Shown here: positions 6,158 to 22,832 of the stretch, in pieces
Layout of the letters: every line of letters begins with the position of its first letter
How positions within the stretch are numbered: the stretch's first letter is position 1
Assembly (NCBI GenBank): GCA_014874425.1
Contig: JACWAG010000493.1
Location: 1-35,260 of the forward strand
Source of the DNA: Syntrophaceae bacterium
GTDB taxonomy: Bacteria > Desulfobacterota > Desulfomonilia > Desulfomonilales > Desulfomonilaceae
Direction: 5' to 3'
DNA: 35,260 bases
Position numbers and translations under genes: made by a program
The notes under the pieces: generated by a model
The model's database searches: none
The model's input: the letters and a program-made list of their open reading frames with translations, nothing else
Told to the model about the DNA's origin: nothing

Positions 6158-6219
6158 GGCGAACAACGACTCCTAACCATACCCTCTTAGCAATCCTCCA
6201 ATCGGATTGCTTTTTTTTT
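6158..6219 (+). ncRNA. candidate ~60 nt sigma-54-dependent small RNA
   Basis: Bounded by the sigma-54 promoter and a strong intrinsic terminator. The segment contains no ATG or GTG, and its only TTG lies inside the terminator stem. It carries three pyrimidine anti-SD-like motifs: CTCCT 6170-6174, CCCTCTT 6182-6188, CCTCC 6195-6199. The downstream gene has its own sigma-70 promoter after the terminator. Confidence 0.4.
6189..6219 (+). terminator. rho-independent terminator
   Basis: Perfect 8-bp stem AGCAATCC (6189-6196) / GGATTGCT (6204-6211), 7-nt loop TCCAATC, then a run of T through 6219. Confidence 0.75.
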
Positions 6220-6231
6220 GCCACAAAGCGA

Positions 6232-6259
6232 TTGACACGGGGAAATATTTAACTATACT
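6232..6259 (+). promoter_or_regulatory. sigma-70-type promoter of the regulator/catabolic island
   Basis: TTGACA (6232-6237), 16-nt spacer, TATACT (6254-6259). The spacer contains the palindrome AAATATTT. ACTTAA direct repeats at 6265-6270 and 6276-6281 (11-bp phase) overlap the predicted TSS and are a candidate operator. Confidence 0.55.
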
Positions 6260-6300
6260 TTGCGACTTAACAAATACTTAATAAAAAGAGCCCCCTTTCA

Positions 6301-6855
6301 ATGCGCGTCGAACTTGAAATCGGTCGAAGAATTAGAGCTAAAAGATCGATCAATAAACTGACCTTGAAACAGCTCGCCGAAAAGGTTGGTTGTTCTGACG
6401 CTTATTTGTCTCAAATAGAAAATGGTAAGGTCTCTCCTTCTATTTCCAGCCTAAAAAAAATTTCTCATGCCTTACAAGCCAAGATAACGGATTTTTTTGT
6501 CGAAACAGAAGATGAAGACCCTGTCGTGCTCTCTCGTGATCAAAGAGTGACAATCAGTCTGGAGGGATGGAACGCACGAATTGAGTCTTTAATCATAAAT
6601 TCCAAGAATAAAAGAATGCACCCCTTTTTTACTACAATTCAACCCGGCGGAGGATCTCATGGACTTTACAGCCATGTAGGCGAAGAATTTGGGATAGTTC
6701 TGAAGGGTGAATTGCAAATCAATATTGATGACACAATTCACAGAGTGCGACGGAGTGAAAGCTTTTATTACAATTCAAACCAACCTCACAGTTGGACCAA
6801 TCCTGGAAAAACAGACACGGTTGTAGTTTGGGTAATTAGCCCGCCCACATTTTGA
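6301..6855 (+). CDS. XRE-family HTH transcriptional regulator with C-terminal cupin domain
   Basis: HTH_3 signature LTLKQLAEKVGCSDAYLSQIENGKVSPSISSLKKISHAL. The C-terminal half has a cupin-like beta pattern (GEEFGIVLKGELQI...SFYYNSNQPHSWTN). Confidence 0.85.
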   Translation: MRVELEIGRRIRAKRSINKLTLKQLAEKVGCSDAYLSQIENGKVSPSISSLKKISHALQAKITDFFVETEDEDPVVLSRDQRVTISLEGWNARIESLIINSKNKRMHPFFTTIQPGGGSHGLYSHVGEEFGIVLKGELQINIDDTIHRVRRSESFYYNSNQPHSWTNPGKTDTVVVWVISPPTF

Positions 6856-6919
6856 TCAATTAGCATGGGTAAAGCCGTAACTTGAAGGACATTATCCCAT
6901 TTTAAAAAGGAGAGCGACG

Positions 6920-8143
6920 ATGGTTTTAAAAAGCTTCAGGTCGATTTTGATCGTGATGTTAGTCTGTTTCCTGTCTGTTGGCTTTGCGTGCGCCGCGCAG
7001 AAAGCAGCATGGAAAATCGGTGTCGCCGTTTCATTAACCGGGGTGTTTGGTAAGGACGGCAGTCTGGTAAAAGACGCGTACACTCTGTGGCAGGAAACTG
7101 TCAATTCCCACGGCGGTATTAACGGGGCGCCTGTAGAGCTAATTTTCTACGATGATAAAAGCGATCCGGCGACCACCGCAAAACTCACTGAACAGCTCAT
7201 TGTAAGCGACAAAGTGGACCTTCTATTGGGCGGTTTCGGTAGTAGCCAGCTATTCGCCGCGAGTCCGGTTGCGGAAAAATATCAATATCCCTTGATTAGT
7301 GGTGGCGCCAGTTCAAACAAATTGTTTGAGCGTGGCTTCAAATATTATTTTTCTACATTGGGTAAAGCAACTGAAGAGGTAAGAGGTTGTGTCGACATTT
7401 TCTCAGAGGTTACCCCGAAACCTAAGACAGCCGCGATTATCGGAGCGGACATACTTTTCACTTCTCTGGCGTGTGATGGTTTTAAGAAATATTGCCAAAA
7501 AAATGGCATAGAAGTCATCCACTTCGAACTTTTCCCTATGGCTCTGCAGGATTACAACTCTCTGTTGATGAAGGTCAAAAACAAAAAACCCGACGTGTTG
7601 CTTGTTGGTTCGCATCTTCTGGTAGCTATGAAGACCATCAAGGCCATGAAGGAAATAGATTTCAGTCCCAAGGCGGTAGCATTCAGCTACGGGCCGACAG
7701 TCCCAAAGTTTGTAGAAGATCTAAAAGGTGACGCCAATTATGTAATCGCTGCGTCCGAATGGACCCCCAATATGCCATATTCTGGAAAGGTATTTGGAAA
7801 AGCTAGCGATTTTAACCAGCTATACATAAAGCGTTTTAATCGTAGGCCTGATTACGTTGAGGCCGCTGCCGCGGGTGGGGCTGTAGCTCAGCAGGAAGTT
7901 CTGGAAGAATTGGGATTGAAGCCGCCTCTAAGCAAAGAAAATCGAATTAAGATAATGGAAGCCCTACATAAAGACAAATTTGAAACTTTCTACGGCAAAA
8001 TCCAATTTGGAGCTGATGGGGCTAACGAAGCTCATCCTCCTGTAGCGGTGCAAATCCAGTCGGAAAAACTGGAAAACGTTTTTCCCCTGGAATATGCTGA
8101 AGCCAAAATCCTATATCCATTTAAGCCCTGGAAAGAACGTTAA
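6920..8143 (+). CDS. ABC transporter substrate-binding protein, Leu/Ile/Val-binding (HAAT, Peripla_BP_6) family
   Basis: Signal peptide (...FLSVGFACAAQ), IGVAVSLTG..G start typical of the family, about 400 aa, AAGGAG RBS. The ligand cannot be read from the sequence. Confidence 0.85.
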   Translation: MVLKSFRSILIVMLVCFLSVGFACAAQKAAWKIGVAVSLTGVFGKDGSLVKDAYTLWQETVNSHGGINGAPVELIFYDDKSDPATTAKLTEQLIVSDKVDLLLGGFGSSQLFAASPVAEKYQYPLISGGASSNKLFERGFKYYFSTLGKATEEVRGCVDIFSEVTPKPKTAAIIGADILFTSLACDGFKKYCQKNGIEVIHFELFPMALQDYNSLLMKVKNKKPDVLLVGSHLLVAMKTIKAMKEIDFSPKAVAFSYGPTVPKFVEDLKGDANYVIAASEWTPNMPYSGKVFGKASDFNQLYIKRFNRRPDYVEAAAAGGAVAQQEVLEELGLKPPLSKENRIKIMEALHKDKFETFYGKIQFGADGANEAHPPVAVQIQSEKLENVFPLEYAEAKILYPFKPWKER

Positions 8144-8158
8144 TTCAAGAACAGAGTG

Positions 8159-8193
8159 GGATTGGCGTCTTTTAAGCTGCCAATCCTCCTTTT
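8159..8193 (+). terminator. intra-operon hairpin after the binding-protein gene (partial terminator/attenuator or mRNA stabiliser)
   Basis: GGATTGGC (8159-8166) / GCCAATCC (8179-8186), 12-nt loop, followed by the weak T-tract TCCTTTT. Confidence 0.35.
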
Positions 8194-8276
8194 AACCACA
8201 ATGTAATTAATGGGAACGGGCGTCAAAATTAAATTCGCGCTCACCCTTTAAATATGTGAACTTAAGAAAGATTCAA

Positions 8277-9791
8277 ATGGAAGTCGAAAAACTAAAAAAC
8301 TACGTGAATGGAAAATGGGTCGATTCCAAAACAGGATCATTTTTCCCCACCGTCAATTCCCTAAATGGTCAAACAATAACTCTATGCCCGGATTCTACTA
8401 TTGACGAAGTTGATCTGACTATTTCTCTCGCCAAAAAGGCTTTCCAATCCTGGCGAAATACAATCCCGACCAGACGCGCGGATATTCTTTACACATTGCG
8501 GGAAAAACTACTCGCCGCTCGGAACGAATTAGCGGAAATAATAACGCTTGAACATGGAAAAACACTCTCCGACGCCAAAGGCGAATTAATGCGAGCGATA
8601 CAGTATGTGGAACATCCTTGCGGTATTCCGGAACTGCTAAAGGGCGATCACAGTGAAGACGTCGGAACAGGAGTTGACGAATATTATATAAGAGAGCCCT
8701 TGGGTGTTTTTAGTCTACTGCCTCCTTTCAACTTTCCGGCCATGATAGCCCTTTATTTCACTTGGCCTATTGCGTGCGGAAACACGGTTGTGGTGAAACC
8801 AAGCGAACTATGCCCCATGACTATGCTCAGAATAACCGAATTAGCCGAAGAGTCGGGTTTACCACCGGGAGTGTTGAATATAGTTAACGGTGGTCCACGT
8901 GTAGGCGAGAGGCTTTGCGTCCATCCGGAAATCGAGGGAGTTACATTTGTCGGGTCTTCAAAGGTCGCCGAAATGGTCTACAGAACATCGACTTCTCATG
9001 GAAAACGCGCCCAGTGTCAAGGTGGCGCAAAAAATCATGTCCTTGTCATGGAAGACGCGAACCTTGATGAGGCGATCCCGAACATAGTCAACTCTTGTTT
9101 CGGTCACACGAGCCAGAGGTGTTTCGCTGTGTCAAACGTGTTGGTCGATGAGAAGATTTATGATTCGTTCGAAGAAAGATTCATAGCTGCCTGTCAGAAA
9201 CTTAAACTGGGTGATGGACACGATCCAAAAGTCAACATGGGCCCGGTTGTGAATCAGCGAGCGCTAGATCGTCTCTACGAATCTGTCGATAAAGCGCTGG
9301 AACAAGGGGCGAAGTTGATTCTGGACGGTAGAAATCCAAAAATAGAAGAGTTTCCTGATGGGCTATTTTTTGGTCCCACTCTTTTGGAAGCTGAACCAGA
9401 TAATTTCGCGTTTAGAGAGGAGATATTCGGTCCAGTCAGGTGTGTCAAAAGCGTCAAGAGCTTGCAGGAAGCGATTAATATTATAAATTCAAGCATGTAC
9501 GGACATACTGCAGTTATATATACTCAAAACGGTGGTTGGTCCCGTCACTTCATAAGGAACGTAAATACAGGCCAAATTGGGGTCAATGTTGGCACACCCG
9601 CTCCAATAGCCTTTTATCCTGTTGGTGGCCGAAAAATATCTTTTTACGGGTCACACCGCGGTCGCGCTAACGACGCTATAGATTTCTACACGGACAAAAA
9701 GGTGATTGTAACCAAATGGAGTTCTTATGTTGAAGAACCGGCTTCAAGCAAATCAACAGAAATAAATGAACTAAACTCAGTCCTGTTTTAA
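8277..9791 (+). CDS. aldehyde dehydrogenase, methylmalonate-semialdehyde dehydrogenase (CoA-acylating)-like
   Basis: ALDH fold with N-terminal NYVNGKWV, FNFPAMI, GGAKNH (the MMSDH-type variant of the ELGGK motif), and catalytic Cys in SQRCFAVS. ATG 8277 preferred over GTG 8256. Confidence 0.85.
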   Translation: MEVEKLKNYVNGKWVDSKTGSFFPTVNSLNGQTITLCPDSTIDEVDLTISLAKKAFQSWRNTIPTRRADILYTLREKLLAARNELAEIITLEHGKTLSDAKGELMRAIQYVEHPCGIPELLKGDHSEDVGTGVDEYYIREPLGVFSLLPPFNFPAMIALYFTWPIACGNTVVVKPSELCPMTMLRITELAEESGLPPGVLNIVNGGPRVGERLCVHPEIEGVTFVGSSKVAEMVYRTSTSHGKRAQCQGGAKNHVLVMEDANLDEAIPNIVNSCFGHTSQRCFAVSNVLVDEKIYDSFEERFIAACQKLKLGDGHDPKVNMGPVVNQRALDRLYESVDKALEQGAKLILDGRNPKIEEFPDGLFFGPTLLEAEPDNFAFREEIFGPVRCVKSVKSLQEAINIINSSMYGHTAVIYTQNGGWSRHFIRNVNTGQIGVNVGTPAPIAFYPVGGRKISFYGSHRGRANDAIDFYTDKKVIVTKWSSYVEEPASSKSTEINELNSVLF

Positions 9792-9794
9792 AAA

Positions 9795-10667
9795 ATGTAT
9801 ACCGTATTCGCTCAAACCATAATTAATGGACTCCTGTTAGGAGGAGTTTATGCCGCATATTCAGCGGGATTTTCCCTGATATTTGGTGTCATGGGCGTAG
9901 TTAATCTCGCCCATGGTGAATTGATAATGTTAGGGGCTTTCACCTCTTACTGGTTGTTCGCTTATTTCAATTTGGATCCCTATTTAAGCGCGCCGTTCGC
10001 AATGGTTTTTCTGTTTCTCTTTGGATATGTAGTTCAAAAATACATCATAAATCGGGTCATTGGGCAGCCTCATATAATGAGCTACATCCTTACGTTCGGT
10101 CTCCACTTGATGATAGCCAACATAGCGATCAAAATGTGGACCCAGGATTTCCGGTCCATAACCACATCCTATTCCGGGGCTAATGCGGCAATCTGGGGTC
10201 TAAACATACCACTTGCAAGATTGGTAACCTTCATGGTGGCGCTCCTTGTGACATGGGTACTATGGTTTTTCCTGATGCGAACAGAGACGGGTCGGGCCAT
10301 CCGGGCTACCGCTCAAGACAAGGAAGTAGCCAGGTTAATGGGGGTAGATATCCGAAATATCTACGCCATAACATTTGGGCTTGGCGCGGCTATAACAGGA
10401 CTCTCCGGATCAGTGATGAGCCCCTTTGTAATTATATCCCCCGAAATGGGTCTCGAATACACAATTATTGCATTCTGTGTTGTGGTGTTGGGCGGAATGG
10501 GATACATGCCCGGAGCGCTCGTCGGAGGATTGGTTCTTGGAGTGGCGCAGTCTCTGGCGGCTACCTATCTCAATGCAGGGGTTTCTGTAGCCATAACGTT
10601 TATAATTCTATTTATTATGCTCGTCATTTGCCCGAAAGGGATCTTGGGCAAAGGTAGTGTAGCGTGA
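9795..10667 (+). CDS. livH: HAAT-family ABC transporter permease (LivH type)
   Basis: 290 aa polytopic protein with the family N-terminus QTIINGLLLGGVYAAYSAGFSLIFGVMGVVNLAHGE. Symbol is family-level only. Confidence 0.9.
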   Translation: MYTVFAQTIINGLLLGGVYAAYSAGFSLIFGVMGVVNLAHGELIMLGAFTSYWLFAYFNLDPYLSAPFAMVFLFLFGYVVQKYIINRVIGQPHIMSYILTFGLHLMIANIAIKMWTQDFRSITTSYSGANAAIWGLNIPLARLVTFMVALLVTWVLWFFLMRTETGRAIRATAQDKEVARLMGVDIRNIYAITFGLGAAITGLSGSVMSPFVIISPEMGLEYTIIAFCVVVLGGMGYMPGALVGGLVLGVAQSLAATYLNAGVSVAITFIILFIMLVICPKGILGKGSVA

Positions 10668-10694
10668 CATGCTTTAACAATAACCGAGGGCCGG

Positions 10695-11645
10695 ATGAAT
10701 TTTAAAATCGACAGGATAATTTTGATCATGTTCCTTGGTATTACTGCCGCGCTGGCCTTCCTGCCTAATTTTGTCGAATCTGAATACCTCTTGAGGTTGA
10801 TCACTGTTGTGATCTTTTGGATCGGGATTGCCGGTTGTTGGAACATGATGAGCGGATACACCGGGTATATTGATTTCGGGCCTGTGGTCTATTTTGGAAT
10901 AGGTTCCTATGTTGTCGCCATAGCCATGACCAAGTATGGGATTCCTTTTTTCCCAAGCCTTTTCATTTCCGGCGTAATATCGGGTTCAGTGGCTTTTTTG
11001 GTTGGAATACCAACCTTGCGTTTGAAAGGGGCATATTTTGCAATCGCCACGTTTGCCTTCGCTGAGGCTATGAAACAAATTACACTGGAATTTGATCGTA
11101 CATTCAGTGTTTCATTTTTTCAAGGTAGTGACGGTATAACTCTTCCGATCAGCGGCCATGACAATTCATTTTTCTTCTATTGCGTTTTACCGGTAACCTT
11201 TTTGGTAATGCTAGCTCATTACTTTATTGAACATTCAAAATTCGGATATGGACTGAAAGCCATAAAGGAAGCTGAAACCGCCGCCGAAATAAGTGGGGTC
11301 AATACTACAGCCAACAAACTGGGCGCTTATGTAAGCAGCGCTTTTTTTCTAGGTTTGTTTGGAGCTATAGAGGCTTACTGGATTACCTATATAACCCCTT
11401 CCGATGTTTTCAACATTCAAAAAACAGTTCAGATGGTAATCATGACACTATTGGGAGGTATGGGGACATTTTTGGGGCCGGTGATAGGAGCGACTTTTCT
11501 GACTCTGATTTCCGAGTCGCTGGGCGCGCGATTTGTCGAATACTACCTCATTATGATTGGCGGGATCATAATTGTGGCTATTTTGATAATGCCCAACGGA
11601 ATAATTGGGAGCTTGAAGATACGCAAGAAATTAAGGTTTATTTAA
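10695..11645 (+). CDS. livM: HAAT-family ABC transporter permease (LivM type)
   Basis: 316 aa polytopic protein; GYTGYIDFGPVVYFGIGSY and LRLKGAYFAIATFAFAE are typical LivM motifs. Confidence 0.9.
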   Translation: MNFKIDRIILIMFLGITAALAFLPNFVESEYLLRLITVVIFWIGIAGCWNMMSGYTGYIDFGPVVYFGIGSYVVAIAMTKYGIPFFPSLFISGVISGSVAFLVGIPTLRLKGAYFAIATFAFAEAMKQITLEFDRTFSVSFFQGSDGITLPISGHDNSFFFYCVLPVTFLVMLAHYFIEHSKFGYGLKAIKEAETAAEISGVNTTANKLGAYVSSAFFLGLFGAIEAYWITYITPSDVFNIQKTVQMVIMTLLGGMGTFLGPVIGATFLTLISESLGARFVEYYLIMIGGIIIVAILIMPNGIIGSLKIRKKLRFI

Positions 11646-11682
11646 TCTATGCAATAAATACAATAGCTTATTCGGGCACAAA

Positions 11683-12420
11683 ATGACTGGTTTGGAATGC
11701 AGGAAAGTAAGTATGAAATTTGGGGCCCTTGCCGCGGTCCAGATGGTGAGTTTTTCCCTGAATCCTGGTGAGATTCTGGGAATGATAGGACCCAACGGGG
11801 CTGGAAAAACTACTCTTCTCAATTGTGTAATTGGTATCCATAAACCTACTTCTGGGAGAATTTTCCTCAATCAAATCGACATAACTGGCATGAAACCCCA
11901 TAAAATTTGCCGCATGGGTTTAGCAAAAACATCCCAAATTATGGAGCCATTTATGGCGATGACCGTATTTGAAAACGTTCTCGTGGGCGCCTTGCATGGT
12001 GGTCGGATGAGAATGCGCCTAGCAACTGAAAAAACGGAGAAGGTCATAGAGCTAGTAGGACTTAAACAATACGCTTACAAGCTTTCAGGGTCTATTCCTG
12101 TGCCGGCGCGCAGACGGCTCGAACTCGCCAGGGCTTTAGCGAGCGGCGCCAATATCCTTCTTCTTGACGAAAACATGGCAGGCTTAAACCCTCATGAAAT
12201 CGATGAAGCGCTTGAGATTCTAAAAAAGATCCGAAACTCAGGAAAATCTCTAATAGTTATAGAACATATCATGAGGGTTGTAATGGGTATTTCAGATCGA
12301 ATCATCGTATTAAATTACGGCTCCAAAATTGCTGAGGGTTTTCCAGAAGAAGTTGTAAATGATGAATCGGTAATAAAAGCGTACCTGGGAGATAAGCTTA
12401 CATCTCTTAAAGTAGCTTGA
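11683..12420 (+). CDS. livG: ABC transporter ATP-binding protein (LivG type)
   Basis: Walker A GPNGAGKTT, Walker B LLLDE (signature loop degenerate), C-terminal IKAYLG typical of LivG. Confidence 0.9.
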   Translation: MTGLECRKVSMKFGALAAVQMVSFSLNPGEILGMIGPNGAGKTTLLNCVIGIHKPTSGRIFLNQIDITGMKPHKICRMGLAKTSQIMEPFMAMTVFENVLVGALHGGRMRMRLATEKTEKVIELVGLKQYAYKLSGSIPVPARRRLELARALASGANILLLDENMAGLNPHEIDEALEILKKIRNSGKSLIVIEHIMRVVMGISDRIIVLNYGSKIAEGFPEEVVNDESVIKAYLGDKLTSLKVA

Positions 12421-13148
12421 GAACAAATAAAATGAACGAACCCCTTCTAAAAGTAGAAAAAATTGATGTTTCGTATCGCGATGTTCAGGTTCTTCATGAA
12501 ATTGATCTAGAGGTTTATCCATCTGAGATTGTTACTGTAATAGGCCCTAACGGGGCTGGGAAAAGCACTTTGCTTAGTGCAATAATGGGTTTTGAAACCC
12601 CCAACAACGGCTCAATAACTTTTAATGGGAAGAAAATAACCGGGACCCCACCGGAAGAAACAGTAAAATTGGGTATGACTATAGTACCGGAGGGGGCCCG
12701 GGTCTTCACGGAGATGACAGTTCTGGACAATCTGAAAATGGGTTCATACATAAAATCATCACGTGTTCATCGAAAATCATCATTTGAAATGGTTTTCAAT
12801 TTCTTTCCCCGTTTACATGAAAGAATAAAGCAGAAAGGCGGCACCTTGAGTGGAGGTGAACGCCAGATGCTGGCAATAGGAAGGGCGTTAATGTCCAGAC
12901 CCTCTTTGTTGCTCCTGGATGAACCTTCTCTTGGATTGGCCCCATTGCTTGTTACTAAAGTATTCGAAACCATAGTTGAAATCGCAACGACTGGTTTAAC
13001 TGTGTTGTTAGTTGAGCAGAATGTTCATTTTTCCCTGGAAATTTCCAAAAGAGCATACGTGCTTGAGAACGGACGGATTGTAAAACACGGCTTTTCTGAA
13101 GAGCTTATGAACAACGATTATATTAAAAAATCCTATCTGGCGCTCTAG
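12417..13148 (+). CDS. livF: ABC transporter ATP-binding protein (LivF type)
   Basis: Walker A GPNGAGKST, signature LSGGERQ, Walker B LLLDEPS. TTG 12417 overlaps the livG stop (TTGA). ATG 12432 (MNEPLLKVE...) is an equally plausible start. Confidence 0.9.
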   Translation: MRTNKMNEPLLKVEKIDVSYRDVQVLHEIDLEVYPSEIVTVIGPNGAGKSTLLSAIMGFETPNNGSITFNGKKITGTPPEETVKLGMTIVPEGARVFTEMTVLDNLKMGSYIKSSRVHRKSSFEMVFNFFPRLHERIKQKGGTLSGGERQMLAIGRALMSRPSLLLLDEPSLGLAPLLVTKVFETIVEIATTGLTVLLVEQNVHFSLEISKRAYVLENGRIVKHGFSEELMNNDYIKKSYLAL

Positions 13149-13173
13149 AAAATTTGCCTCGAGGTTTCCCATT

Positions 13174-13701
13174 ATGAATCAAGAAAACCCACAGGATGAA
13201 CTAGCTGATCTGGAAATTTCTTTCACATTGAATGACTCTCAAGTTCGTGTTTCGATAAAACCATGGGAAACTGCCTTAGAAACTCTTCGAAACAAATTCG
13301 GGCTTACGGGAGTAAAAGAAGGCTGTGGAATTGGTGAATGTGGGGCCTGCACAATAGTCATGGACGGAAAAGCCGTTAATGGATGTCTAATATTGGCGGC
13401 TCAACTCGATGGGCGAACAGTCGAAACAGTCGAAGGTCTGTCTTCGAATGGGACCATGAACTACCTACAAAAAGCCTTTCTGGATAAAGGCGGTGTGCAA
13501 TGCGGTTTTTGTACTCCAGGAATGCTGATGTCAGCCAAGGCCTTGCTGGATGAATGCGATCAGCCATCGAAAAAAGTAATCACAAACGCTTTATCAGGCA
13601 ATTTATGTCGGTGCGCTGGTTACGTTCAAATAGTCGATGCGGTGGAAGAGGCGGCGCTAATAAAGTCAAAAGACGCAGAGGACCAAGCTGTCAATAGATG
13701 A
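13174..13701 (+). CDS. molybdenum hydroxylase small subunit, 2x[2Fe-2S] (CoxS/XdhA-N family)
   Basis: CGIGECGACTIVMDGKAVNGC (plant-type cluster) and CGFCTPGM...CRCAGY (second cluster). Confidence 0.9.
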   Translation: MNQENPQDELADLEISFTLNDSQVRVSIKPWETALETLRNKFGLTGVKEGCGIGECGACTIVMDGKAVNGCLILAAQLDGRTVETVEGLSSNGTMNYLQKAFLDKGGVQCGFCTPGMLMSAKALLDECDQPSKKVITNALSGNLCRCAGYVQIVDAVEEAALIKSKDAEDQAVNR

Positions 13702-14558
13702 GAATTAATTTCAAATACTTAAGACCACATTCTCTGAATGAGTGTTTGGCGGTTCTTGCTACACATGGGGACGAGTCTGCGATATTGGCCGGTGGCACTG
13801 ATCTGATGATTTCTCTCAGAAGTGGTTCACGGACACCTAAGTTTGTCCTGGATATTTCGAGACTAAGTGAAATTCGCTCTGTTGAACAACACGCCGAAGT
13901 CATCAAGATAGGAGCCATTCTGACATATTCAGAATTGATCGCTCATCCTTTAATAGTCAAGACTTTTCCAGCTCTTAGCGCCGCAATGAGCTGCGTAGGG
14001 AGCCTTCAAATCAGAAACGTCGGGACTTTGGGAGGCAATATAGCGAACTCTTCGCCTGCTGCGGATAGTATTCCCCCAATGATGATCCACGACGCTCAGG
14101 TCATGATTCAAAAAGTTAATTCTGTCAGAATAGAAAAGCTGGAGAAACTCATTGTGGGGCCATCTTCAAACACTTTAGAGCCTGATGAATTGATTACCGG
14201 GATAATCTTGAAGCCCGTTGAAAGCGCTTATAAACAAAGTTACCGGCGTATAGCCCGACGCAAGAGCCTTTCCATAGCAAGAGTCAATATGGCGGTATCA
14301 GCAAAATTGGATGCCAATGGACTCATAGAGGACGTTAGAATTTCGGTGGGTTCCGTGGCCCCAACTCCGCTGCGAATTAAAAAAATTGAAGATTCTCTAA
14401 TAGGACTGAAACCTGAATCCAAATTTATTCAGGAAACTGGTGAGTTGGTTGCCCGTCACATTGTGGACCTTGTTGGAGTTCGCCATTCCACTGAGTATAA
14501 ACGGCCGGCTATAGCGGGCCTGGCTATAAAATGCTTAGAGGACGTGTTCATTGACTGA
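13698..14558 (+). CDS. molybdenum hydroxylase FAD-binding medium subunit (CoxM/XdhB family)
   Basis: ILAGGTDLM and TLGGNIANSSPAAD motifs. Its ATG overlaps the small-subunit stop (ATGA). Confidence 0.85.
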   Translation: MRINFKYLRPHSLNECLAVLATHGDESAILAGGTDLMISLRSGSRTPKFVLDISRLSEIRSVEQHAEVIKIGAILTYSELIAHPLIVKTFPALSAAMSCVGSLQIRNVGTLGGNIANSSPAADSIPPMMIHDAQVMIQKVNSVRIEKLEKLIVGPSSNTLEPDELITGIILKPVESAYKQSYRRIARRKSLSIARVNMAVSAKLDANGLIEDVRISVGSVAPTPLRIKKIEDSLIGLKPESKFIQETGELVARHIVDLVGVRHSTEYKRPAIAGLAIKCLEDVFID

Positions 14559-16848
14559 CACAAACTTTAGCCAAAGCTCTTCATCAATCGGATTGAATAT
14601 TTCGCGTGTCGGAGCGGAAGAAAAGCTTCAGGGTAAAGCGCTATTTGCAAACGATGTCGTTTTGAAAAACGCCCTATGCCTGAAAGCCCTAAGAAGTGAA
14701 CTGCCTCACGCTGTAATTGAATCAATAGAAGTTCAAAGGGCTATAAATTCGCCCGGATGTGTAGCCGTTTTCACAGGTAGAGATATACCTGGAAAAAACA
14801 GGTATGGCCTCATCAACAAAGACCAACCACTTCTTGCTGATACTAAAGTTAGATTTGTCGGTGATCCAGTCGCTCTGGTGGCCGCAGTCTCCGAGGACGC
14901 GGCGCAGACCGCCCTCTCCAAAATCAAGGTCGAATACAAGGAATTAGCCGCTGTTTTTGATCCGGAAGAAGCGCTTGCGCCAGGCGCTCCATTGATCCAT
15001 GAAAAAGGCAATCTTTTGGGGAAACGATTAATAAAGAAAGGTGTCCCTGATTTGGCGTTTCAAAAAGCGGATATAGTCATTGAACGGAAGTACCAGACGA
15101 CGTTCGTCGAACACGCTTATCTTGAACCGGACGCCGGAGCCGCATTTGTAGACCAAAGTGGGCGAATAACAATATATGCGTCTACTCAAAACCCCCATTA
15201 TGACCAGGTTGATGTGGCTAAGCTGTTAGGACTTCCCGAAAACATGGTTCGAATCATTCAAACAGCAACAGGCGGAGGCTTTGGATCAAAACTTGACATC
15301 AATACACAGGGGTTCCTCGGGCTGGCGGCTTATCTTTTGAAAAGACCCGTCAAAATGACCTATAGCCGTGAAGAGGCTTTCCTTTGCACATCCAAAAGAC
15401 ACCCATTAAAGATAGTGTACAAATCAGCGGCCAATAAAGATGGGAGACTACTGGCGATAGATGTCAAAATAATTGGCGATACGGGCGCTTACGCGTCCTA
15501 CGGACTTGCTGTTGTGACTCGTTCCGCAGTTCACGCGACTGGTCCGTATGAGGTCCCAAATGTCCACGTCGAGTCTGTTTTCGCGTATACCAACAATTCT
15601 ATTGCAGGCGCAATGAGAGGTTTTGGTGTGCCTCAGATGGCTTTTGCGCATGAGTCGCAAATGGACTTACTTGCTGAAGCATTGGCTGTCAGCCCACTTG
15701 AAATAAGGGCTAGGAATATTCTAAGATTGGGGTCAACTACCGCTACCAAACAGACGCTTACGGCCAGTGTTGGAATAGGGGCGTGCATTGAAGCTATAGC
15801 TCCACATTACGAACAAATTAAAAAATCCATTGAGCTAACAAAAACGAAAAATCTCCGCGGGGTAGGATTGGGTTGCATGATGTACGGTATAGGCAATACA
15901 GGTGTCCAAAACCCGTCTACCGCGCAAGTCGAATTACAACCTGACGGTACGATAACATTGTTCAGTGGAGCGGCTGATATAGGGCAAGGCTCCTCCACCG
16001 TTTTAACTCAAATTGCAGCCACTGAACTTGGTCTGGACTCGAACAAAATCGACCTTGTAACTGCCGATACCGGAATGACGACTTCTGCAGGGGCCACATC
16101 TGCAAGCAGACAAACCTATATCTCCGGAAATGCCGTATTGGATGCTGTCTCAAAACTCAAGGAAATGCTTCTTACTGAAGCCGCTACCATGCTCAGGACT
16201 GGACGAGCCTCCCTGACTTTAAAAAATGGCAGAATCGAAAATATTTCAAACAACGCACTATTTGTCACTCTGGAACAGGTTGTAAGAAAGGCTGTAACGG
16301 AGGGAATACCACTAAAATGGCAGGGTTTTTTTGATCCCGATACTACCCCTCTGGACCCTGATACAGGTGAAGGCAATCCTTACGCGACTTTTGCTTTCGC
16401 AGCTCAACTTGCAGAAATTGAAATCGATGTTCTCACAGGAGAGGTCACAGTCACAAAAGTTGTTGCGGCTCATGATGTAGGAAAGGCTATAAACCCTGAT
16501 TGTGTAAAGGGCCAAATTTATGGTGGGGTCGCAATGGGATTAGGTTTTGCCCTAATGGAAGAATTTGCGCCGGGGAAAACAGTCTCCCTTAAAGATTACC
16601 ATGTGCCTACGTTTTCGGATATGCCCGATGTACATGCCATAATAGTTGAAGACGCTGAACCAACGGGTCCCTACGGAGCAAAGGGAGTGGGTGAACCAGC
16701 GTTAATACCTACCGCTCCGGCGATACTTAACGCGATAGCTGACGCTTTGGGATCAAGAATTTATTTTTTGCCGGCCAACCTGGAACGGATCATGAAAGCA
16801 ATCCATTCAGGGACCTCAAAACCACTTAAAATAAAACTGATGGTGTAA
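14551..16848 (+). CDS. molybdenum hydroxylase large molybdopterin-binding subunit (xanthine dehydrogenase/aldehyde oxidase family)
   Basis: 765 aa with GGGFGSK, MRGFGVPQ and C-terminal GVGEPALIP (catalytic Glu context). TTG start overlaps the FAD-subunit stop by 8 nt. The substrate cannot be called from the sequence alone. Confidence 0.9.
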   Translation: MTDTNFSQSSSSIGLNISRVGAEEKLQGKALFANDVVLKNALCLKALRSELPHAVIESIEVQRAINSPGCVAVFTGRDIPGKNRYGLINKDQPLLADTKVRFVGDPVALVAAVSEDAAQTALSKIKVEYKELAAVFDPEEALAPGAPLIHEKGNLLGKRLIKKGVPDLAFQKADIVIERKYQTTFVEHAYLEPDAGAAFVDQSGRITIYASTQNPHYDQVDVAKLLGLPENMVRIIQTATGGGFGSKLDINTQGFLGLAAYLLKRPVKMTYSREEAFLCTSKRHPLKIVYKSAANKDGRLLAIDVKIIGDTGAYASYGLAVVTRSAVHATGPYEVPNVHVESVFAYTNNSIAGAMRGFGVPQMAFAHESQMDLLAEALAVSPLEIRARNILRLGSTTATKQTLTASVGIGACIEAIAPHYEQIKKSIELTKTKNLRGVGLGCMMYGIGNTGVQNPSTAQVELQPDGTITLFSGAADIGQGSSTVLTQIAATELGLDSNKIDLVTADTGMTTSAGATSASRQTYISGNAVLDAVSKLKEMLLTEAATMLRTGRASLTLKNGRIENISNNALFVTLEQVVRKAVTEGIPLKWQGFFDPDTTPLDPDTGEGNPYATFAFAAQLAEIEIDVLTGEVTVTKVVAAHDVGKAINPDCVKGQIYGGVAMGLGFALMEEFAPGKTVSLKDYHVPTFSDMPDVHAIIVEDAEPTGPYGAKGVGEPALIPTAPAILNAIADALGSRIYFLPANLERIMKAIHSGTSKPLKIKLMV

Positions 16849-16886
16849 AACAGGATATTACGATCAAGACCAAGGAGTCGTCATTT

Positions 16887-18044
16887 ATGTCTAAAACGCT
16901 TATCAAGAACATAGGAACATTGATTTCCGGAAATATCATAAATCCTAAAATAAACGCTGACAGTATATTGATAGCTGACGGGAAAATAAGCGCTATAGGA
17001 TCGGTTTCGGAGTTAGCTGACGGAGTTGATTTAGTAATAGACGCGAATGGAACAACTGTTGCCCCAGGCCTTATTGATTCACACTGTCACGTGGTCCTTG
17101 GTGATTATACTCCTAGACAAAAACAAATGGACTTTATTGAAAGTGAAACTCATGGAGGAGTAACTACAATAATATCAGCCGGTGAAGTCCATTTGCCGGG
17201 ACGACCAACAGATCCTGCCGGGACCAAGGCCCTGGCTATCCTGGCCGCAAAATCCTTTACAAATTTCCGACCCGGAGGCGCCAAGGTAATTGGAGGTTCG
17301 GTAATCCTTGAAAAAGGCCTTGTCGAAAATGATTTTGAAGAAATGGCTCGTGAAGGTGTACGAGTAGTTGGTGAAATAGGGTTGGGCACGGTCAAATTTC
17401 CAGTGGATGCCGTGCCAATGGTAAAATGGGCCAGGAAAAACAATATGACGATATTGATGCACACAGGCGGGACCTCAATACCCGGAAGCGACACTGTTAC
17501 AGCCGAACAAGTCATAGCTACCGACCCAGATGTCGCCTGTCACGTTAATGGCGGTCCTACCGCTATGTCCTCGGGTGAAATCAGAAAACTCATTAATGAC
17601 ACTAAATACGCAATTGAGCTGGTTCACTGTGGTAATCCCAAAGCCCTTCTAGACGCTGTAAATATGGGGCTGGATAGCAAAGCGCTTTCCAGGTTCATTA
17701 TAGGCAATGACGCTCCTTCAGGCACTGGTGTCATACCACTAGGGATTCTAAGGGTAATTTGCATGGTAGCGTCCCTGACTGCCGTGACACCCGAGCAAGC
17801 CATTTGTATGGCTACCGGCAATACTGCAAAAGTGTTCAAGCTTGATACAGGCGTCGTTCAGATAGGGGCGCCCGCTGATCTCATAATGTTGGACAGCCCC
17901 ATGGGATCAGTTGGGAAGTCCGCTTTAGACGCCATAAAAGTTGGTGATATTCCTGGGGTCTCCATGGTGATGATCGACGGAAAAATCCACGTGAAGACAA
18001 GCAGGAATACCCCTCCTGCGGCTAAAAAACCGTCATTCAATTGA
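16887..18044 (+). CDS. enamidase-like amidohydrolase (1,4,5,6-tetrahydro-6-oxonicotinate hydrolase family)
   Basis: 385 aa. It appears collinear with my recollection of Eubacterium barkeri enamidase: MSKT.IKNIG start, DSHCHV metal motif, DY.PRQK.MDFI, HGGVTT, MHTGGTSIPGS.TVTA, NGGPTA, GNDAPSGTG.IPLGILR, CMATGN, C-terminal SRNTPPA. AAGGAG RBS. Needs alignment to confirm. Confidence 0.8.
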   Translation: MSKTLIKNIGTLISGNIINPKINADSILIADGKISAIGSVSELADGVDLVIDANGTTVAPGLIDSHCHVVLGDYTPRQKQMDFIESETHGGVTTIISAGEVHLPGRPTDPAGTKALAILAAKSFTNFRPGGAKVIGGSVILEKGLVENDFEEMAREGVRVVGEIGLGTVKFPVDAVPMVKWARKNNMTILMHTGGTSIPGSDTVTAEQVIATDPDVACHVNGGPTAMSSGEIRKLINDTKYAIELVHCGNPKALLDAVNMGLDSKALSRFIIGNDAPSGTGVIPLGILRVICMVASLTAVTPEQAICMATGNTAKVFKLDTGVVQIGAPADLIMLDSPMGSVGKSALDAIKVGDIPGVSMVMIDGKIHVKTSRNTPPAAKKPSFN

Positions 18045-18078
18045 AATTGGCATTTAACAACTATGAACGCGGGCATAT

Positions 18079-19578
18079 ATGAAAATTGATAGCCTCAAAT
18101 GTGTGGGATGCGCCGATTGCTTGCCGATTTGTCCTCAATCGGCAATCAAAATCAGGAATAGGAAAGCCGTTATAGACGAAAAATGTTGCGATTGCCGCGC
18201 CTGCCTCCGGGTGTGCCAAAACGACGCCATTTGCGCAGAATATATTCCACCGGAACAGTACGTTCAATGCGAGGCCTGCCCAATAAGATGCAAAATAAAA
18301 GAAGGTTTTCTAGGCGCCTGTCAAAGATACCAAAACAAAGACGGCGCTCTTGAGCGAACAATCAAACTCAAAAAACTTTCCGATGTAAAGAGCATGGTGG
18401 GAGAAGACTGGAGGGAGGAAATCCGCCGTCCCCTTATAACAGCGATTGGGGCTGGCACAACATATCCGGATTGTAAACCTGCGCCACACATCATCCAAAA
18501 CAAGGTTAATGGAATTGATGTGGTAACAGTCGTCACAGAGGCGCCATTGAGTTACTCAGGTGTAAAGATTAAGGTCGATACGGATAGGATGTTGGGTGAG
18601 GAAGGGTCCTCGATCTCTTATCATCGGAAAAAAGTCGGGCATCTAACCACTGAAGAATATGGTTCCAAAATGTTGTCTTTGGGGGGAGTAAACCTTCTTA
18701 CAGGCCCGGACGGTCTTTTTGTGGCCAGAGTAGTCGCAGACGTAGCGAATCGGAAAAAAATCCGGCTTAAGATTAGAAATGGGGCCGAATTGGATCTTCA
18801 GGTTGGTGGTCCGCCGCTAATTAACGGGGAAAAAGATTACTTGATGCGAGTGGGATGTGGGAGCGCGACGCTTGGATTATTCGCCGAAATGTTAAAAAAA
18901 GTCGCTGATGAAGTAATAATCCTGGATTCTCATTTGACCGGGTTAATGAGTGAACATACTGCCGGAGTTTATGTTGGAACCGCCCCTTCAGGGGTTAAGC
19001 TCAAATTTTCCAGAAGCACGCCCGGTAGATATTTTGGAGATCACGGTAGTGGATGGGGAGGAACGTCAATCATAAATCCGCTGGAAATAATTGAAAGCGT
19101 GGATTCCAAAATCGCCAAGCCTGGAATGTTGATTTTGATAACAGAAACAACCGGAAGACAAGCCGCCATGTTTCAATTGACATCAACAGGTTCTCTAAAC
19201 GAAATAGCAATAACTGTCAAAGCCAAAGAGGCTGTTCAGACTATAGCGGAGACATGTGAAAATTCCCGCGTATCGGCGATTTATTGCGGCGGTTCTGGTG
19301 GGAGCGCCCGTGCAGGAGTAACTAAGTACCCGATTAGGTTGACATATGCGATTCATACAAACAAAGCTAAATTAACTGTAGGTGGAGCGCCTACTTTTGT
19401 TCTACCGGGAGGCGGAATCAACTTCATGGTCGATGTTGAAAAAGTCGTGCCGGGAGCTTTCAGTTGGACCCCAACTCCTGCTACTATTTGCCCCATTGAG
19501 TATACCATGACACTTGAAGACTACATAAAAATGGGAGGGCACAAAGAGGCGATCAAACCTTTTATTAAAGGGGACTAA
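18079..19578 (+). CDS. 6-hydroxynicotinate reductase-like iron-sulfur protein
   Basis: The N-terminus has two ferredoxin-type motifs (CVGCADCLPICP, CCDCRACLRVCQ) plus an extra CEACPIRC...C cluster, on a ~500 aa body. It sits directly downstream of the enamidase homologue. Assignment rests on domain pattern, size and synteny. Confidence 0.6.
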   Translation: MKIDSLKCVGCADCLPICPQSAIKIRNRKAVIDEKCCDCRACLRVCQNDAICAEYIPPEQYVQCEACPIRCKIKEGFLGACQRYQNKDGALERTIKLKKLSDVKSMVGEDWREEIRRPLITAIGAGTTYPDCKPAPHIIQNKVNGIDVVTVVTEAPLSYSGVKIKVDTDRMLGEEGSSISYHRKKVGHLTTEEYGSKMLSLGGVNLLTGPDGLFVARVVADVANRKKIRLKIRNGAELDLQVGGPPLINGEKDYLMRVGCGSATLGLFAEMLKKVADEVIILDSHLTGLMSEHTAGVYVGTAPSGVKLKFSRSTPGRYFGDHGSGWGGTSIINPLEIIESVDSKIAKPGMLILITETTGRQAAMFQLTSTGSLNEIAITVKAKEAVQTIAETCENSRVSAIYCGGSGGSARAGVTKYPIRLTYAIHTNKAKLTVGGAPTFVLPGGGINFMVDVEKVVPGAFSWTPTPATICPIEYTMTLEDYIKMGGHKEAIKPFIKGD

Positions 19579-19647
19579 AGTCTGAACAAATGGGAAGCCG
19601 AAATTCTTGTTCTTGGTGATCAGAGCGTTCTTGTCGATTGCGGACCG

Positions 19648-20436
19648 ATGAGGATGATGATTGAGGGTTTTGAAGGGCCTCAGCCGCGTCCGGATTTGTG
19701 TGTAAAGGCCGCAAACTTTTCAATAAAAATCTTGGAAGAAGTCGCTGCGGCCAAGGCCCAACTAAGTAAAACGGCAATCACTTCTGACCCTCCATCAGGT
19801 GATGGTGTTTCATTCAAAATGTGGCAGGCCACCAGAAGGATTGGCGCTCATGATTTGACACCCATGGCCACAGTCGCAGGAGCGGTTGCAGACGCTACAG
19901 CAGATTTCTTGCACGGGTTTGGAATGACCAGATCTATTGTAAATAACGGTGGTGACATTGCAATTCGACTAACAGGCGAAGAATTTGTCAACGTTGGTGT
20001 CCGATGTGATATTGACAGGTCTGAAATTTCTCACCGTATATCAGTTTCACAAGCCTCTGGTGTTGGAGGAATTTGTACTAGTGGGCTGGGCGGCCGAAGT
20101 TTCACTCGAGGCATAGCGTCCGCTGTTACTGTATTGGGGGTAACGGCGGCGATAGCTGACGCTGCGGCCACGTCGGTAGCCAACGCGACATATATCGATC
20201 ACCCAAATATCATCCGCATAAATGCTGATGAATTGGACCCACTAACTGATCTCAAAGGTATCAAAATCACATGCGGTGTGGGAGACCTGGAAATGGAATT
20301 CATCGATGAGTGTTTTATCAAGGCGCTTAACTATGCGGACACTCTTGTGTATCAGGGAGCAATAGTTGGGGCTGTGGTCTCAATTAAAGGACGGACACGC
20401 CTAACTAACGGAATAAAATCTATGATGTTAGCTTAG
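19648..20436 (+). CDS. UPF0280 / ApbE-superfamily-like protein (uncharacterised)
   Basis: Ala/Gly-rich alpha/beta protein (TPMATVAGAVAD, NNGGDIA, TSGLGGRSFTRGIA), recalled as the UPF0280 pattern. The frame is open from the upstream stop at 19576-19578, and the upstream residues (EAEILVLGDQSVLVDCGP) look protein-like, so the true start may be non-canonical and upstream of ATG 19648. Confidence 0.5.
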   Translation: MRMMIEGFEGPQPRPDLCVKAANFSIKILEEVAAAKAQLSKTAITSDPPSGDGVSFKMWQATRRIGAHDLTPMATVAGAVADATADFLHGFGMTRSIVNNGGDIAIRLTGEEFVNVGVRCDIDRSEISHRISVSQASGVGGICTSGLGGRSFTRGIASAVTVLGVTAAIADAAATSVANATYIDHPNIIRINADELDPLTDLKGIKITCGVGDLEMEFIDECFIKALNYADTLVYQGAIVGAVVSIKGRTRLTNGIKSMMLA

Positions 20437-20485
20437 TTTACGGGGAATGGCATTTTTCTTAAATGAGAGAAGAAGGGGAACTATC

Positions 20486-21064
20486 ATGGAAATCAGGAAA
20501 ATTTGCACAGTAGTTGAAGAAACTCACACCGAAATGGGAAAAAACGTAACACCTCCATCCAAACGAGCGGCCGCAATAGCAGTCATCAAAAATCCCTTTG
20601 CAGGCCGTTACCAGGAGAATCTGTCAGAGTTAATTGAAACAGGCGAAAAATTGGGAGAGCTTCTTGGGAAGAAGGCCCTTGAAGCGCTAGGTATAAATTC
20701 TGACAAAGCTGAGAGTTACGGCAAGGGAGCAATCGTTGGTTCTCAAGGTGAACTGGAACACGCTGCCGCCATTTTGCATCCAAAACTGGGCACACCTTTT
20801 AGGGAAGCCCTGGGTGGTGGTAAAGCCTTGATCCCATCTGCGAAGAAAATTGGTGGGCCAGGCACGGAACTGGATGTTCCGATTCATTATAAGGACGCCG
20901 CTTTTGTAAGGTCACATTTTGACGCGATGCCAATCCGAGTTCAGGACGCTCCTCGTGGTAACGAGATCGTAGTGGCTCTTGTGGTGACCGATTCAGGAAG
21001 ACCTTTGGCTAGGGTTGGTGGGCTCAAAAAGGAAGAAGCCAAAAAGGAAGACGGCCTGAGATAA
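20486..21064 (+). CDS. 'amino acid synthesis' family (PF06684/DUF1185-like) protein, function unknown
   Basis: About 190 aa starting MEIRKICTVVEE, with AAAIAVIKNPFAGRY, YGKGAIVG..GE.EHAAAILHPKLG and FVRSHFDAM as recalled for this family. GAAGGGGA RBS 7 nt upstream of ATG 20486 (track start 20447 rejected). Confidence 0.6.
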   Translation: MEIRKICTVVEETHTEMGKNVTPPSKRAAAIAVIKNPFAGRYQENLSELIETGEKLGELLGKKALEALGINSDKAESYGKGAIVGSQGELEHAAAILHPKLGTPFREALGGGKALIPSAKKIGGPGTELDVPIHYKDAAFVRSHFDAMPIRVQDAPRGNEIVVALVVTDSGRPLARVGGLKKEEAKKEDGLR

Positions 21065-22742: not shown

Positions 22743-22832
22743 CAATTGAACTATGTTATTGACCAAAAAAAATACCAACTGACATTGCAGTTGGCGTAGG
22801 AGGAAAAGATTATTTTCTTGACCTTTCCTTAA

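Follow-up and report, generated by a model that had tools for sequence, protein, structure and literature searches.

A candidate operon for anaerobic nicotinate catabolism in a Syntrophaceae bacterium, with its own importer and a proposed aldehyde dehydrogenase exit to glutaryl-CoA

Introduction

Nicotinate is a ubiquitous vitamin (B3) and a model N-heterocycle. To our knowledge, the genetics of its anaerobic breakdown has been worked out only for the fermentation of Eubacterium barkeri. The nicotinate-oxidising sulfate reducer Desulfococcus niacini has been known since the 1980s; a literature search returned no gene-level description of the route in sulfate reducers, and no link of these organisms to nicotinate gene clusters. 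Here we analyse a stretch of 35,260 nucleotides (nt) from a Syntrophaceae bacterium of the Desulfobacterota (assembly GCA_014874425.1, contig JACWAG010000493.1, positions 1 to 35,260), hereafter the window. An earlier note, made from these letters, had read part of it as an upper nicotinate pathway joined to an importer, with none of the lower-pathway genes of E. barkeri. The locus thus raises the question of how the carbon would be carried on once the pyridine ring has been opened.

Judged by the similarity of the encoded proteins, the locus is very probably a nicotinate-type operon, in which genes for nicotinate dehydrogenase (Ndh), 6-hydroxynicotinate reductase (Hnr) and enamidase (Ena) are accompanied by their own importer. 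An aldehyde dehydrogenase (ALDH) gene embedded in the operon suggests an answer to the question. The explanation as a whole, a substrate-inducible operon for anaerobic nicotinate catabolism with an exit through the ALDH to glutaryl-coenzyme A (glutaryl-CoA), appears probable to us.

Results

The operon encodes a putative upper nicotinate pathway

A listing of the open reading frames (ORFs) of the window places 14 ORFs, all on the forward strand, between positions 6301 and 21064 (Table 1), with coordinates identical to those of the 14 co-directional genes described in the earlier note. The three tight junctions read as described there, with TTGA at 12417-12420, ATGA at 13698-13701 and an 8-nt overlap at 14551-14558, and the remaining gaps measure 3-112 nt. 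Every domain call of the note was confirmed by Pfam and NCBIfam. Related loci (numbered with the prefix L) were fetched through an alignment of the enamidase, which also recovered the nicotinate cluster of E. barkeri VPI 5359 (L009).

The best matches of the molybdenum (Mo) subunit in the PDB are the two E. barkeri molybdoprotein chains 3HRD_A (NdhL; residues 13-414, 390 bits) and 3HRD_B (NdhM; residues 435-751, 262 bits), which together give 652 bits, compared with 357 bits for 4-hydroxybenzoyl-CoA reductase. Identity is 48% to NdhL in the N-terminal part and 45% to NdhM in the C-terminal part, and the protein reads as an unsplit version (an NdhL-NdhM fusion) of the E. barkeri molybdoprotein. 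For the enamidase, clustering with dihydroorotase or hydantoinase had been named beforehand as an outcome that would refute the reading, and the match to the enamidase structure 2VUN (E 1e-141) far exceeds that to the best hydantoinase or dihydroorotase (3e-8). The residues at the metal-ligand positions, His66, His68, His192, His219 and Asp275, are invariant in the alignment with 2VUN.

The 499-residue iron-sulfur protein had been likened to Hnr, and it aligns over 497 of its 499 residues with the product of the Hnr gene of the E. barkeri cluster (48% identity); its database homologues carry the name 6-hydroxynicotinate reductase. Residues 1-52 contain two ferredoxin-type Cys motifs, C8/11/14/18 and C36-46 (eight Cys), followed by a further conserved four-Cys motif, C64/C67/C71/C81. 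E. barkeri Hnr reportedly contains two [4Fe-4S] clusters and one [2Fe-2S] cluster, and the Cys pattern of the window protein fits this composition. For the catalytic core (residues ~60-499), we detected neither a Pfam domain nor a structurally solved relative. In an AlphaFold (AF2) model with a predicted local distance difference test score (pLDDT) of 71.8, Foldseek matched the ferredoxin domain only, which permits no mechanistic inference. The confidence of the model is lowest in the most conserved loops (102-135, 287-300, 313-319 and 407-416), which may be cofactor- or partner-binding regions.

The nearest characterised relatives of Ndh, Hnr and Ena are thus all nicotinate enzymes of E. barkeri, in line with the upper nicotinate pathway that had been proposed for the locus. 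By homology to NdhSFLM, the three-subunit Mo/FAD/[2Fe-2S] hydroxylase would oxidise nicotinate to 6-hydroxynicotinate. Hnr would then take electrons from reduced ferredoxin via its own 2x[4Fe-4S] domain and, again by homology, reduce 6-hydroxynicotinate to 1,4,5,6-tetrahydro-6-oxonicotinate (THON). The enamidase, for which the homology is strong, would open the THON ring to give (S)-2-formylglutarate and NH4+. The conversion of 6-hydroxynicotinate through THON to (S)-2-formylglutarate with a bifunctional enamidase has been described (PMC9304392). On the strength of these alignments, we regard hydroxylation, ring reduction and ring opening as highly likely functions of the operon.

An embedded aldehyde dehydrogenase suggests a route to glutaryl-CoA

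The window contains no lower-pathway gene of the E. barkeri type, as had been noted: the lower-pathway ORFs of L009, which we read as Hgd, MgmL, Mii, Hmd, Dml and DmdAB by position and size, give no tblastn match in it at E<=1e-3. Hgd, Hmd, the B12-dependent 2-methyleneglutarate mutase, methylitaconate isomerase, dimethylmaleate hydratase and dimethylmalate lyase are therefore missing from the window. In E. barkeri the aldehyde 2-formylglutarate is taken by the NADH-dependent reductase Hgd and then enters a B12-dependent rearrangement, whereas the window offers an ALDH. The earlier note had recorded this gene correctly and had given it no role; in our analysis it is the best clue to an alternative lower route.

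The ALDH belongs to the methylmalonate-semialdehyde dehydrogenase (MMSDH, AlDH6) family. It scores above the cut-off (448.5 bits) of TIGR01722, the model for CoA-acylating MMSDH, and its ten best PDB matches are all MMSDHs (E 2e-117 to 1.5e-107), with the next family at 1e-75. It aligns over its full length with 1T90; when the residues are matched with the GAKNH and RC motifs as anchors, Cys289, Asn159 and Gln255 align with Cys284, Asn153 and Leu250 of 1T90. The catalytic Cys and Asn are thus kept, and the catalytic Glu is replaced by Gln255. Two Arg residues, R113 and R288 (beside the Cys), are also conserved; the two conserved Arg residues of MMSDH reportedly bind the substrate carboxylate. 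In AlDH6 enzymes the catalytic Glu is lost and the thioacyl-enzyme is not hydrolysed; instead, the beta-carboxylate is lost before transfer to CoA (PMC12041015). The window ALDH therefore resembles AlDH6 (B. subtilis IolA, 1T90, and human ALDH6A1) in family score, full-length alignment, catalytic Cys and Asn, loss of the Glu and both Arg residues. It differs in its context, which is nicotinate catabolism and not that of valine, beta-alanine or inositol, and in its proposed substrate, which has an extra carboxyethyl side chain.

2-Formylglutarate is a 2-substituted (2-carboxyethyl) malonate semialdehyde, and MMSDH chemistry would therefore give glutaryl-CoA, CO2 and NADH. We propose that the ALDH would oxidise 2-formylglutarate, release its 2-carboxyl group as CO2 and transfer the acyl group to CoA. 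From the chemistry of the family, with strong support from the genomic context, we lean slightly towards this reaction. Glutaryl-CoA would then be oxidised through crotonyl-CoA to two acetyl-CoA by the products of genes outside the window. Such an exit matches the end of the pathway in Azorhizobium caulinodans, which continues nicotinate catabolism 'via glutarate' (PMC3511419; Kitts et al. 1992).

The aldehyde dehydrogenase accompanies nicotinate genes in related loci

Six Desulfomonilaceae-type genomes, distinct at the species level (L002-L005, L007, L008), share with the window the order of genes that runs from the binding protein or the ALDH through DUF1185, with 53-98% amino-acid identity, and L001 and L006 hold partial copies of the operon. 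The gene arrangement is not due to chance. The nearest database proteins (92-98% identical) come from Desulfomonilaceae-type metagenome-assembled genomes.

MMSDH-like ALDHs lie beside ndh, ena and hnr genes in nine further loci from Desulfobacterota and Peptococcaceae, and the nicotinate-associated ALDHs accompany three transporter types and four regulator types. L060 has an XRE-cupin regulator, a binding protein and the ALDH before the ndh-ena-hnr core. A TRAP transporter and the ALDH precede the core in L053, while L054 and L055 have a GntR regulator, the ALDH, the core and then a TRAP transporter. In L061 the order is TRAP, GntR, ALDH, a nicotinamidase-like gene and the core, and in L059, from a member of the Peptococcaceae, it is a sigma-54 activator, ALDH, Ena, Hnr, Ndh and an SSF transporter. 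The ALDH is found beside nicotinate genes across these transporters and regulators and therefore tracks the nicotinate genes, not the importer.

The nicotinate-associated ALDHs form two clades that are 32-36% identical to each other; those of L058 and L060 were placed in the clades by identity alone. TIGR01722 scores are 473-483 bits in one clade (window, L059, L061) and 367-390 bits in the other (L053-L055), which also lacks the 20-residue C-terminal tail of the window ALDH. R113 and R288-C289 are kept and the Glu is lost in all four aligned ALDHs (window, L053-L055).

The nicotinamidase-like gene of L061 (4262-5017) lies between the ALDH and ndhS genes of a cluster whose Hnr and Ena are each 62% identical to those of the window. 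The encoded protein scores 172 bits with NF008623 (cut-off 174), and its best PDB matches are nicotinamidases (2wt9, 7.5e-41). The gene points to nicotinamide, the precursor of nicotinate, as a possible entry substrate.

In E. barkeri (L009) and E. aggregans (L011), lower-pathway genes are interleaved with the upper ones. Such genes are absent within ~10 kb in all 14 Desulfobacterota or Peptococcaceae loci.

Two further arrangements were seen in the enamidase family, which appears to have diversified. In L058 (9986-13546), an ALDH (59% identical to that of the window), Ena (54%) and DUF1185 (65%) occur together with no Hnr within 10 kb, and adjoin other Mo-hydroxylase, UbiD and luciferase-like genes; L058 may represent a related pathway for another heterocycle. 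Tandem enamidase paralogues are found in Adiutrix and Clostridia genomes (L012 5558-7886, L013 347-2666, L014 10001-12368); they are 42-44% and 32-37% identical to the window enamidase, and L012 and L014 also have a more distant Hnr (38-41%).

UPF0280 and DUF1185 accompany Hnr

The last two genes of the operon encode a UPF0280 protein and a DUF1185 protein. The UPF0280 ORF comprises 262 residues from ATG 19648 and ~284 residues from CTG 19582. The 22 in-frame codons that precede ATG 19648 (L-N-K-W-E-A-E-I-L-V-L-G-D-Q-S-V-L-V-D-C-G-P) are homologous to the N-terminus of longer homologues, and each of the eight Desulfomonilaceae loci (window, L001-L005, L007, L008) has a CTG 2-4 codons ahead of the conserved Trp. 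The gene thus probably starts at the conserved CTG 19582 and not at ATG 19648. The Hnr stop codon precedes this CTG by one codon, in the same frame, in the window and in L001-L004, which is not the case in L005, L007 and L008. Read-through of the stop codon to make an Hnr-UPF0280 fusion was considered and rejected: the frames differ in these three loci, and a conserved CTG start is simpler.

An AF2 model of the UPF0280 protein built with 27 sequences has a pLDDT of 94.2. In a Foldseek search of the PDB, the best match is DVU1097 (DUF375, E 8e-9), followed by ApbE/Ftp/FmnB flavin transferases only; all 41 matches at E<=1e-3 are DUF375 or ApbE/Ftp/FmnB proteins, and no other kind appears below E=1. 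The predicted fold of the 262-residue protein therefore matches only the superfamily of the ApbE/Ftp/FmnB FAD:protein FMN transferases and its DUF375 branch. The protein differs from these transferases in being cytoplasmic, short (~262-284 residues) and in a separate family, with TM-scores of 0.38-0.57. Among the UPF0280 homologues, which have PF02424 and PF27030, some bear the database name FAD:protein FMN transferase.

In most clusters examined, hnr is followed by the UPF0280 gene; in the others, this gene lies elsewhere in the same cluster. The flavin of E. barkeri Hnr is reportedly bound covalently. Because of this covalent flavin, and because the UPF0280 gene accompanies hnr, we propose a role in flavin delivery or attachment, in which the UPF0280 protein would install or deliver the flavin of Hnr. 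That it flavinylates Hnr is a tentative assignment, somewhat more doubtful than the ALDH reaction. The nearest acceptor candidate in Hnr, which is a guess, is T127 in a conserved G-A-G-T-T loop. Our literature search found no paper linking ApbE with hydroxynicotinate.

DUF1185 genes are present in nearly all clusters examined. The closest solved homologue of the window protein, 2qtp, is the crystallised DUF1185 protein SPO0826 of Ruegeria pomeroyi, and a second PDB entry, 3byq, matches at 1.5e-41. The 'amino-acid synthesis' label of the family rests only on neighbouring liv-type ATP-binding cassette (ABC) transporter genes (PMC2954203). In nicotinate clusters, the liv-type ABC genes beside DUF1185 presumably encode the nicotinate importer, and the name 'amino acid synthesis' is probably a misnomer that arose from clusters of this type. 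DUF1185 would be a further conserved accessory of hnr/ena clusters.

The earlier note had listed both as proteins of unknown function. Neither protein is an extra, as both have homologues in the E. barkeri cluster (40% and 62% identity). Homologues of both also lie beside hnr in all six proteobacterial loci examined, which are on plasmids or chromids of Sagittula, a Comamonadaceae strain, Pleomorphomonas, Neorhizobium, Allorhizobium and Methylobacterium. UPF0280 and DUF1185 belong to the known core of Hnr/Ena clusters.

Importer, regulator and boundaries of the operon

The periplasmic binding protein, two permeases and two ATPases make up a HAAT-type ABC importer. Inferred from gene position, this importer would take up the pyridine carboxylate in the first step of the pathway, an assignment that we consider reasonably likely; gene context makes nicotinate the presumed ligand of the binding protein. 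Regulation of the operon probably falls to the XRE-cupin protein, which presumably senses the pathway substrate. This protein scores 90.8 bits with the NCBIfam PuuR model, below the model cut-off, and orthologues with 73-76% identity occupy the same position in L060 and L062.

Between 5800 and 21400, the sigma-70-like site that scores best is a candidate promoter preceding the regulator gene, and its -35 box lies at 6232, the start coordinate chosen in the earlier note. It directly follows a hairpin with a T8 tract (6189-6211) that closes the upstream rsmB gene. A search for an operator of the XRE-cupin regulator gave weak repeats only, and we claim no site; an Rfam scan of the window returned no riboswitch or other RNA element. 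The binding-protein and ALDH genes are 112 nt apart, and in this gap a 13-bp inverted repeat, GGATTGGCGTCTT / AAGCTGCCAATCC, at 8159-8186 may act as an intercistronic stabiliser or attenuator.

The genes that flank the operon are housekeeping genes. Ankyrin-repeat, def, fmt, M48 and rsmB genes lie upstream, and FG-GAP, metallo-beta-lactamase, FmdE, NUDIX, RNase II, SIS, Lon-like, sigma-70, CpsB and nuoA/B genes lie downstream. Ankyrin-repeat and FG-GAP-repeat proteins are uncommon in bacteria; the two encoded here (1267-1986, and 21162-22778 on the reverse strand) flank the region, and neither is related to the operon. We also considered a horizontally acquired island and rejected it, as G+C content and skew are uniform across the borders and the more distant L062 has the operon at the same def-fmt-M48-rsmB site. 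The word 'island' used previously is for these reasons better replaced by 'operon'.

Table 1. Predicted genes and the candidate promoter of the operon, in window coordinates
Feature	Position	Strand	Basis
Sigma-70-like promoter candidate before regulator gene	6232..6259	+	Consensus match only, TTGACA-16-TATACT, 11/12
XRE-family helix-turn-helix (HTH) + cupin regulator, PuuR-like architecture	6301..6855	+	HTH_3 2e-13, Cupin_2 4e-16
HAAT-family periplasmic substrate-binding protein	6920..8143	+	Peripla_BP_6 9e-49
CoA-acylating, decarboxylating ALDH, MMSDH (AlDH6) family	8256..9791	+	TIGR01722 483.3 bits
ABC importer permease, LivH-like	9795..10667	+	BPD_transp_2 8e-39
ABC importer permease, LivM-like	10695..11645	+	BPD_transp_2 9e-32
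ABC importer ATPase, LivG-like	11683..12420	+	ABC_tran, BCA_ABC_TP_C
ABC importer ATPase, LivF-like	12417..13148	+	TTG start overlaps preceding stop codon
Nicotinate dehydrogenase [2Fe-2S] subunit, NdhS-like	13174..13701	+	Fer2_2 5e-30; 48% identity to E. barkeri NdhS
Nicotinate dehydrogenase FAD subunit, NdhF-like	13698..14558	+	FAD_binding_5, CO_deh_flav_C; 32% identity to E. barkeri NdhF
Nicotinate dehydrogenase molybdopterin subunit, 765 aa, MoCoBD	14551..16848	+	Matches NdhL + NdhM
Enamidase (amidohydrolase)	16887..18044	+	PDB 2VUN, E 1e-141, residues 1-380, 58% identity
Putative 6-hydroxynicotinate reductase (Hnr), 499 aa, N-terminal 2x[4Fe-4S] ferredoxin domain	18079..19578	+	48% identity to E. 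barkeri Hnr
UPF0280 protein, ApbE superfamily	19582..20436	+	NCBIfam PRK04334 7e-61; ORF call from ATG 19648
DUF1185 ('AA_synth', PF06684) protein, 205 aa	20447..21064	+	PF06684 7e-74; PDB 2qtp 3e-76

Discussion

Two kinds of nicotinate cluster can be set beside the operon. With that of E. barkeri (L009; Alhapel et al. 2006) it shares homologues of NdhF, NdhS, NdhL, NdhM, Hnr and Ena at 32-58% identity, the N-terminal 2x[4Fe-4S] domain of Hnr, and the UPF0280 and DUF1185 genes, which in L009 lie directly after hnr (3289-4161) and directly after ena (11194-11775), respectively. Apart from the missing lower pathway, it differs in having one 765-residue Mo subunit where NdhL and NdhM are split, and in the added ABC importer, XRE-cupin regulator and MMSDH-type ALDH.

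A proteobacterial cluster described previously (PMC3511419 Fig. 4) already combines the three steps with two conserved unknowns and an ABC transporter. The first three steps, a liv-type ABC transporter, UPF0280 and DUF1185 are common to this Azorhizobium/Bradyrhizobium-type cluster and the window, and in both the carbon is expected to leave through a C5 dicarboxylate or glutaryl-CoA and not by the B12 route. The proteobacterial Hnr lacks the ferredoxin domain (matches begin at residue ~57-62), and its gene has one for a ferredoxin-NADP reductase as its partner, whereas the window has no fpr gene and its Hnr keeps the N-terminal 2x[4Fe-4S] domain. The proteobacterial clusters further differ in usually having two DUF1185 paralogues and often a NicAB-like Mo enzyme, and in the six loci examined the 13-20 kb around hnr contain no ALDH homologue. 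Several of them have HyuA/HyuB in place of enamidase; this hydantoinase/oxoprolinase-type pair, at L051 4522-8261, L056 17999-21834 and L057 18629-22422 in alphaproteobacterial hnr clusters, is presumably ATP-dependent and seems to provide another way of opening the ring of the same lactam.

The locus thus shares its ferredoxin-domain, oxygen-independent Hnr with E. barkeri, and its importer-plus-accessory layout, probably together with the C5 exit route, with Proteobacteria. The embedded MMSDH-type ALDH sets it apart from both. The gene set had been called unlike the E. barkeri paradigm, which holds for the importer, the regulator, the ALDH and the missing lower pathway; its unfamiliarity was overstated, because UPF0280 and DUF1185 are shared and the layout was already described in Proteobacteria.

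Several observations weigh against the proposed pathway. An identity of 32-58% to the E. barkeri enzymes leaves the substrate specificity unfixed. The sequence of the binding protein does not reveal its ligand, as its solved relatives are all distant, and it is no orthologue of the proteobacterial 'nicotinate' binding proteins (<=26% identity over 171 residues). We know of no MMSDH with demonstrated activity on a substrate of the size and double charge of 2-formylglutarate, and no glutaryl-CoA dehydrogenase gene is adjacent to any related cluster examined. The window UPF0280 protein has no Pfam match at E<=1e-3, and the canonical ApbE acceptor motif [ST]GA[ST] (Dxx[ST]GA[ST]) is absent from the Hnr sequence. 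Finally, the regulator and the ndh-ena-hnr-UPF0280-DUF1185 genes occur in L062 (137-13056) at the same def-fmt-M48-rsmB-XRE/cupin site; its core proteins are 66-79% identical to those of the window, and it lacks the binding-protein, ALDH and ABC genes. The ALDH is therefore either dispensable for the core or supplied in trans, and the block of binding-protein, ALDH and ABC genes behaves as a movable module.

This last locus lends itself to another reading, in which the block (6920-13148) is an independent amino-acid or beta-alanine/valine-type module inserted by chance, with an ordinary MMSDH as its ALDH. A block that is missing from the same operon at the same chromosomal site moves as a unit, amino-acid uptake is the classical role of HAAT importers, and valine, beta-alanine or inositol degradation that of MMSDH. 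However, MMSDH-like ALDHs also lie beside ndh, ena and hnr in loci without a HAAT importer, with TRAP (L053-L055, L061) or SSF (L059) transporters instead; two ALDH clades in the same position are hard to explain without a shared pathway function; and the window has no transaminase or other amino-acid catabolic gene. We therefore consider a chance insertion improbable. An E. barkeri-type lower pathway encoded elsewhere in the genome, with the ALDH as a detoxifying or side enzyme, is less probable still, and we regard it as very unlikely. Only 35 kb of the genome is visible, so that absence from the window is not absence from the genome; against this, the lower genes are interleaved with the upper ones in L009 and L011 and are found near none of the 14 Desulfobacterota and Peptococcaceae loci, in whose clusters the ALDH is consistently embedded.

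By the same hydroxylation, ring reduction and lactam hydrolysis, the operon might also degrade another N-heterocyclic carboxylate, such as a different pyridine carboxylate or a substituted nicotinate (for example, 6-hydroxynicotinate derived from 6-chloronicotinate), with nicotinate at most a side substrate. Besides the moderate identities, the diversification of the Hnr/Ena family would allow for this, with tandem Ena in L012-L014, HyuAB in Proteobacteria and ALDH-Ena-DUF1185 without Hnr in L058, and the specificity of Mo-hydroxylases is notoriously hard to read from sequence. Nicotinate is nevertheless the best-supported substrate, because the nearest characterised relatives of all three catalytic proteins are E. 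barkeri nicotinate enzymes, because the related cluster L061 embeds a nicotinamidase-like gene, and because the importers that replace one another between clusters (HAAT-type ABC, TRAP, SSF) would fit a small organic acid as the compound taken up. The chemistry of the ALDH also fits the specific product expected from nicotinate. With these points taken together, we think a different heterocycle unlikely to be the main substrate.

For nicotinate catabolism through glutaryl-CoA, the combination that we propose for strict anaerobes of the Desulfobacterota and Peptococcaceae is an MMSDH-family 2-formylglutarate dehydrogenase together with UPF0280 as the enzyme that flavinylates Hnr; we put it forward as a possibility that falls somewhat short of probable. 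In the searchable literature, the coverage of which is incomplete, neither this anaerobic variant nor the proposed ALDH reaction turned up. If the proposal is true, the MMSDH family gains a new substrate, and one step to glutaryl-CoA replaces six E. barkeri enzymes, including the B12 mutase. Complete nicotinate oxidation by sulfate reducers would also gain the genetic basis that it has lacked.

UPF0280 and DUF1185 are widespread families that accompany Hnr across three phyla, and this companionship indicates a role in making or assisting the flavo-iron-sulfur reductase. UPF0280 would then be a cytoplasmic ApbE-type transferase, the first function for this family, and DUF1185 would gain a defined context; the setting in nicotinate clusters explains how it came by the misleading name 'amino acid synthesis protein' in databases. 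In kind, the pathway holds no surprise. The operon and its relatives provide a concrete, testable gene set for the sulfate-reducer nicotinate route, and with it gene assignments for an old physiological observation.

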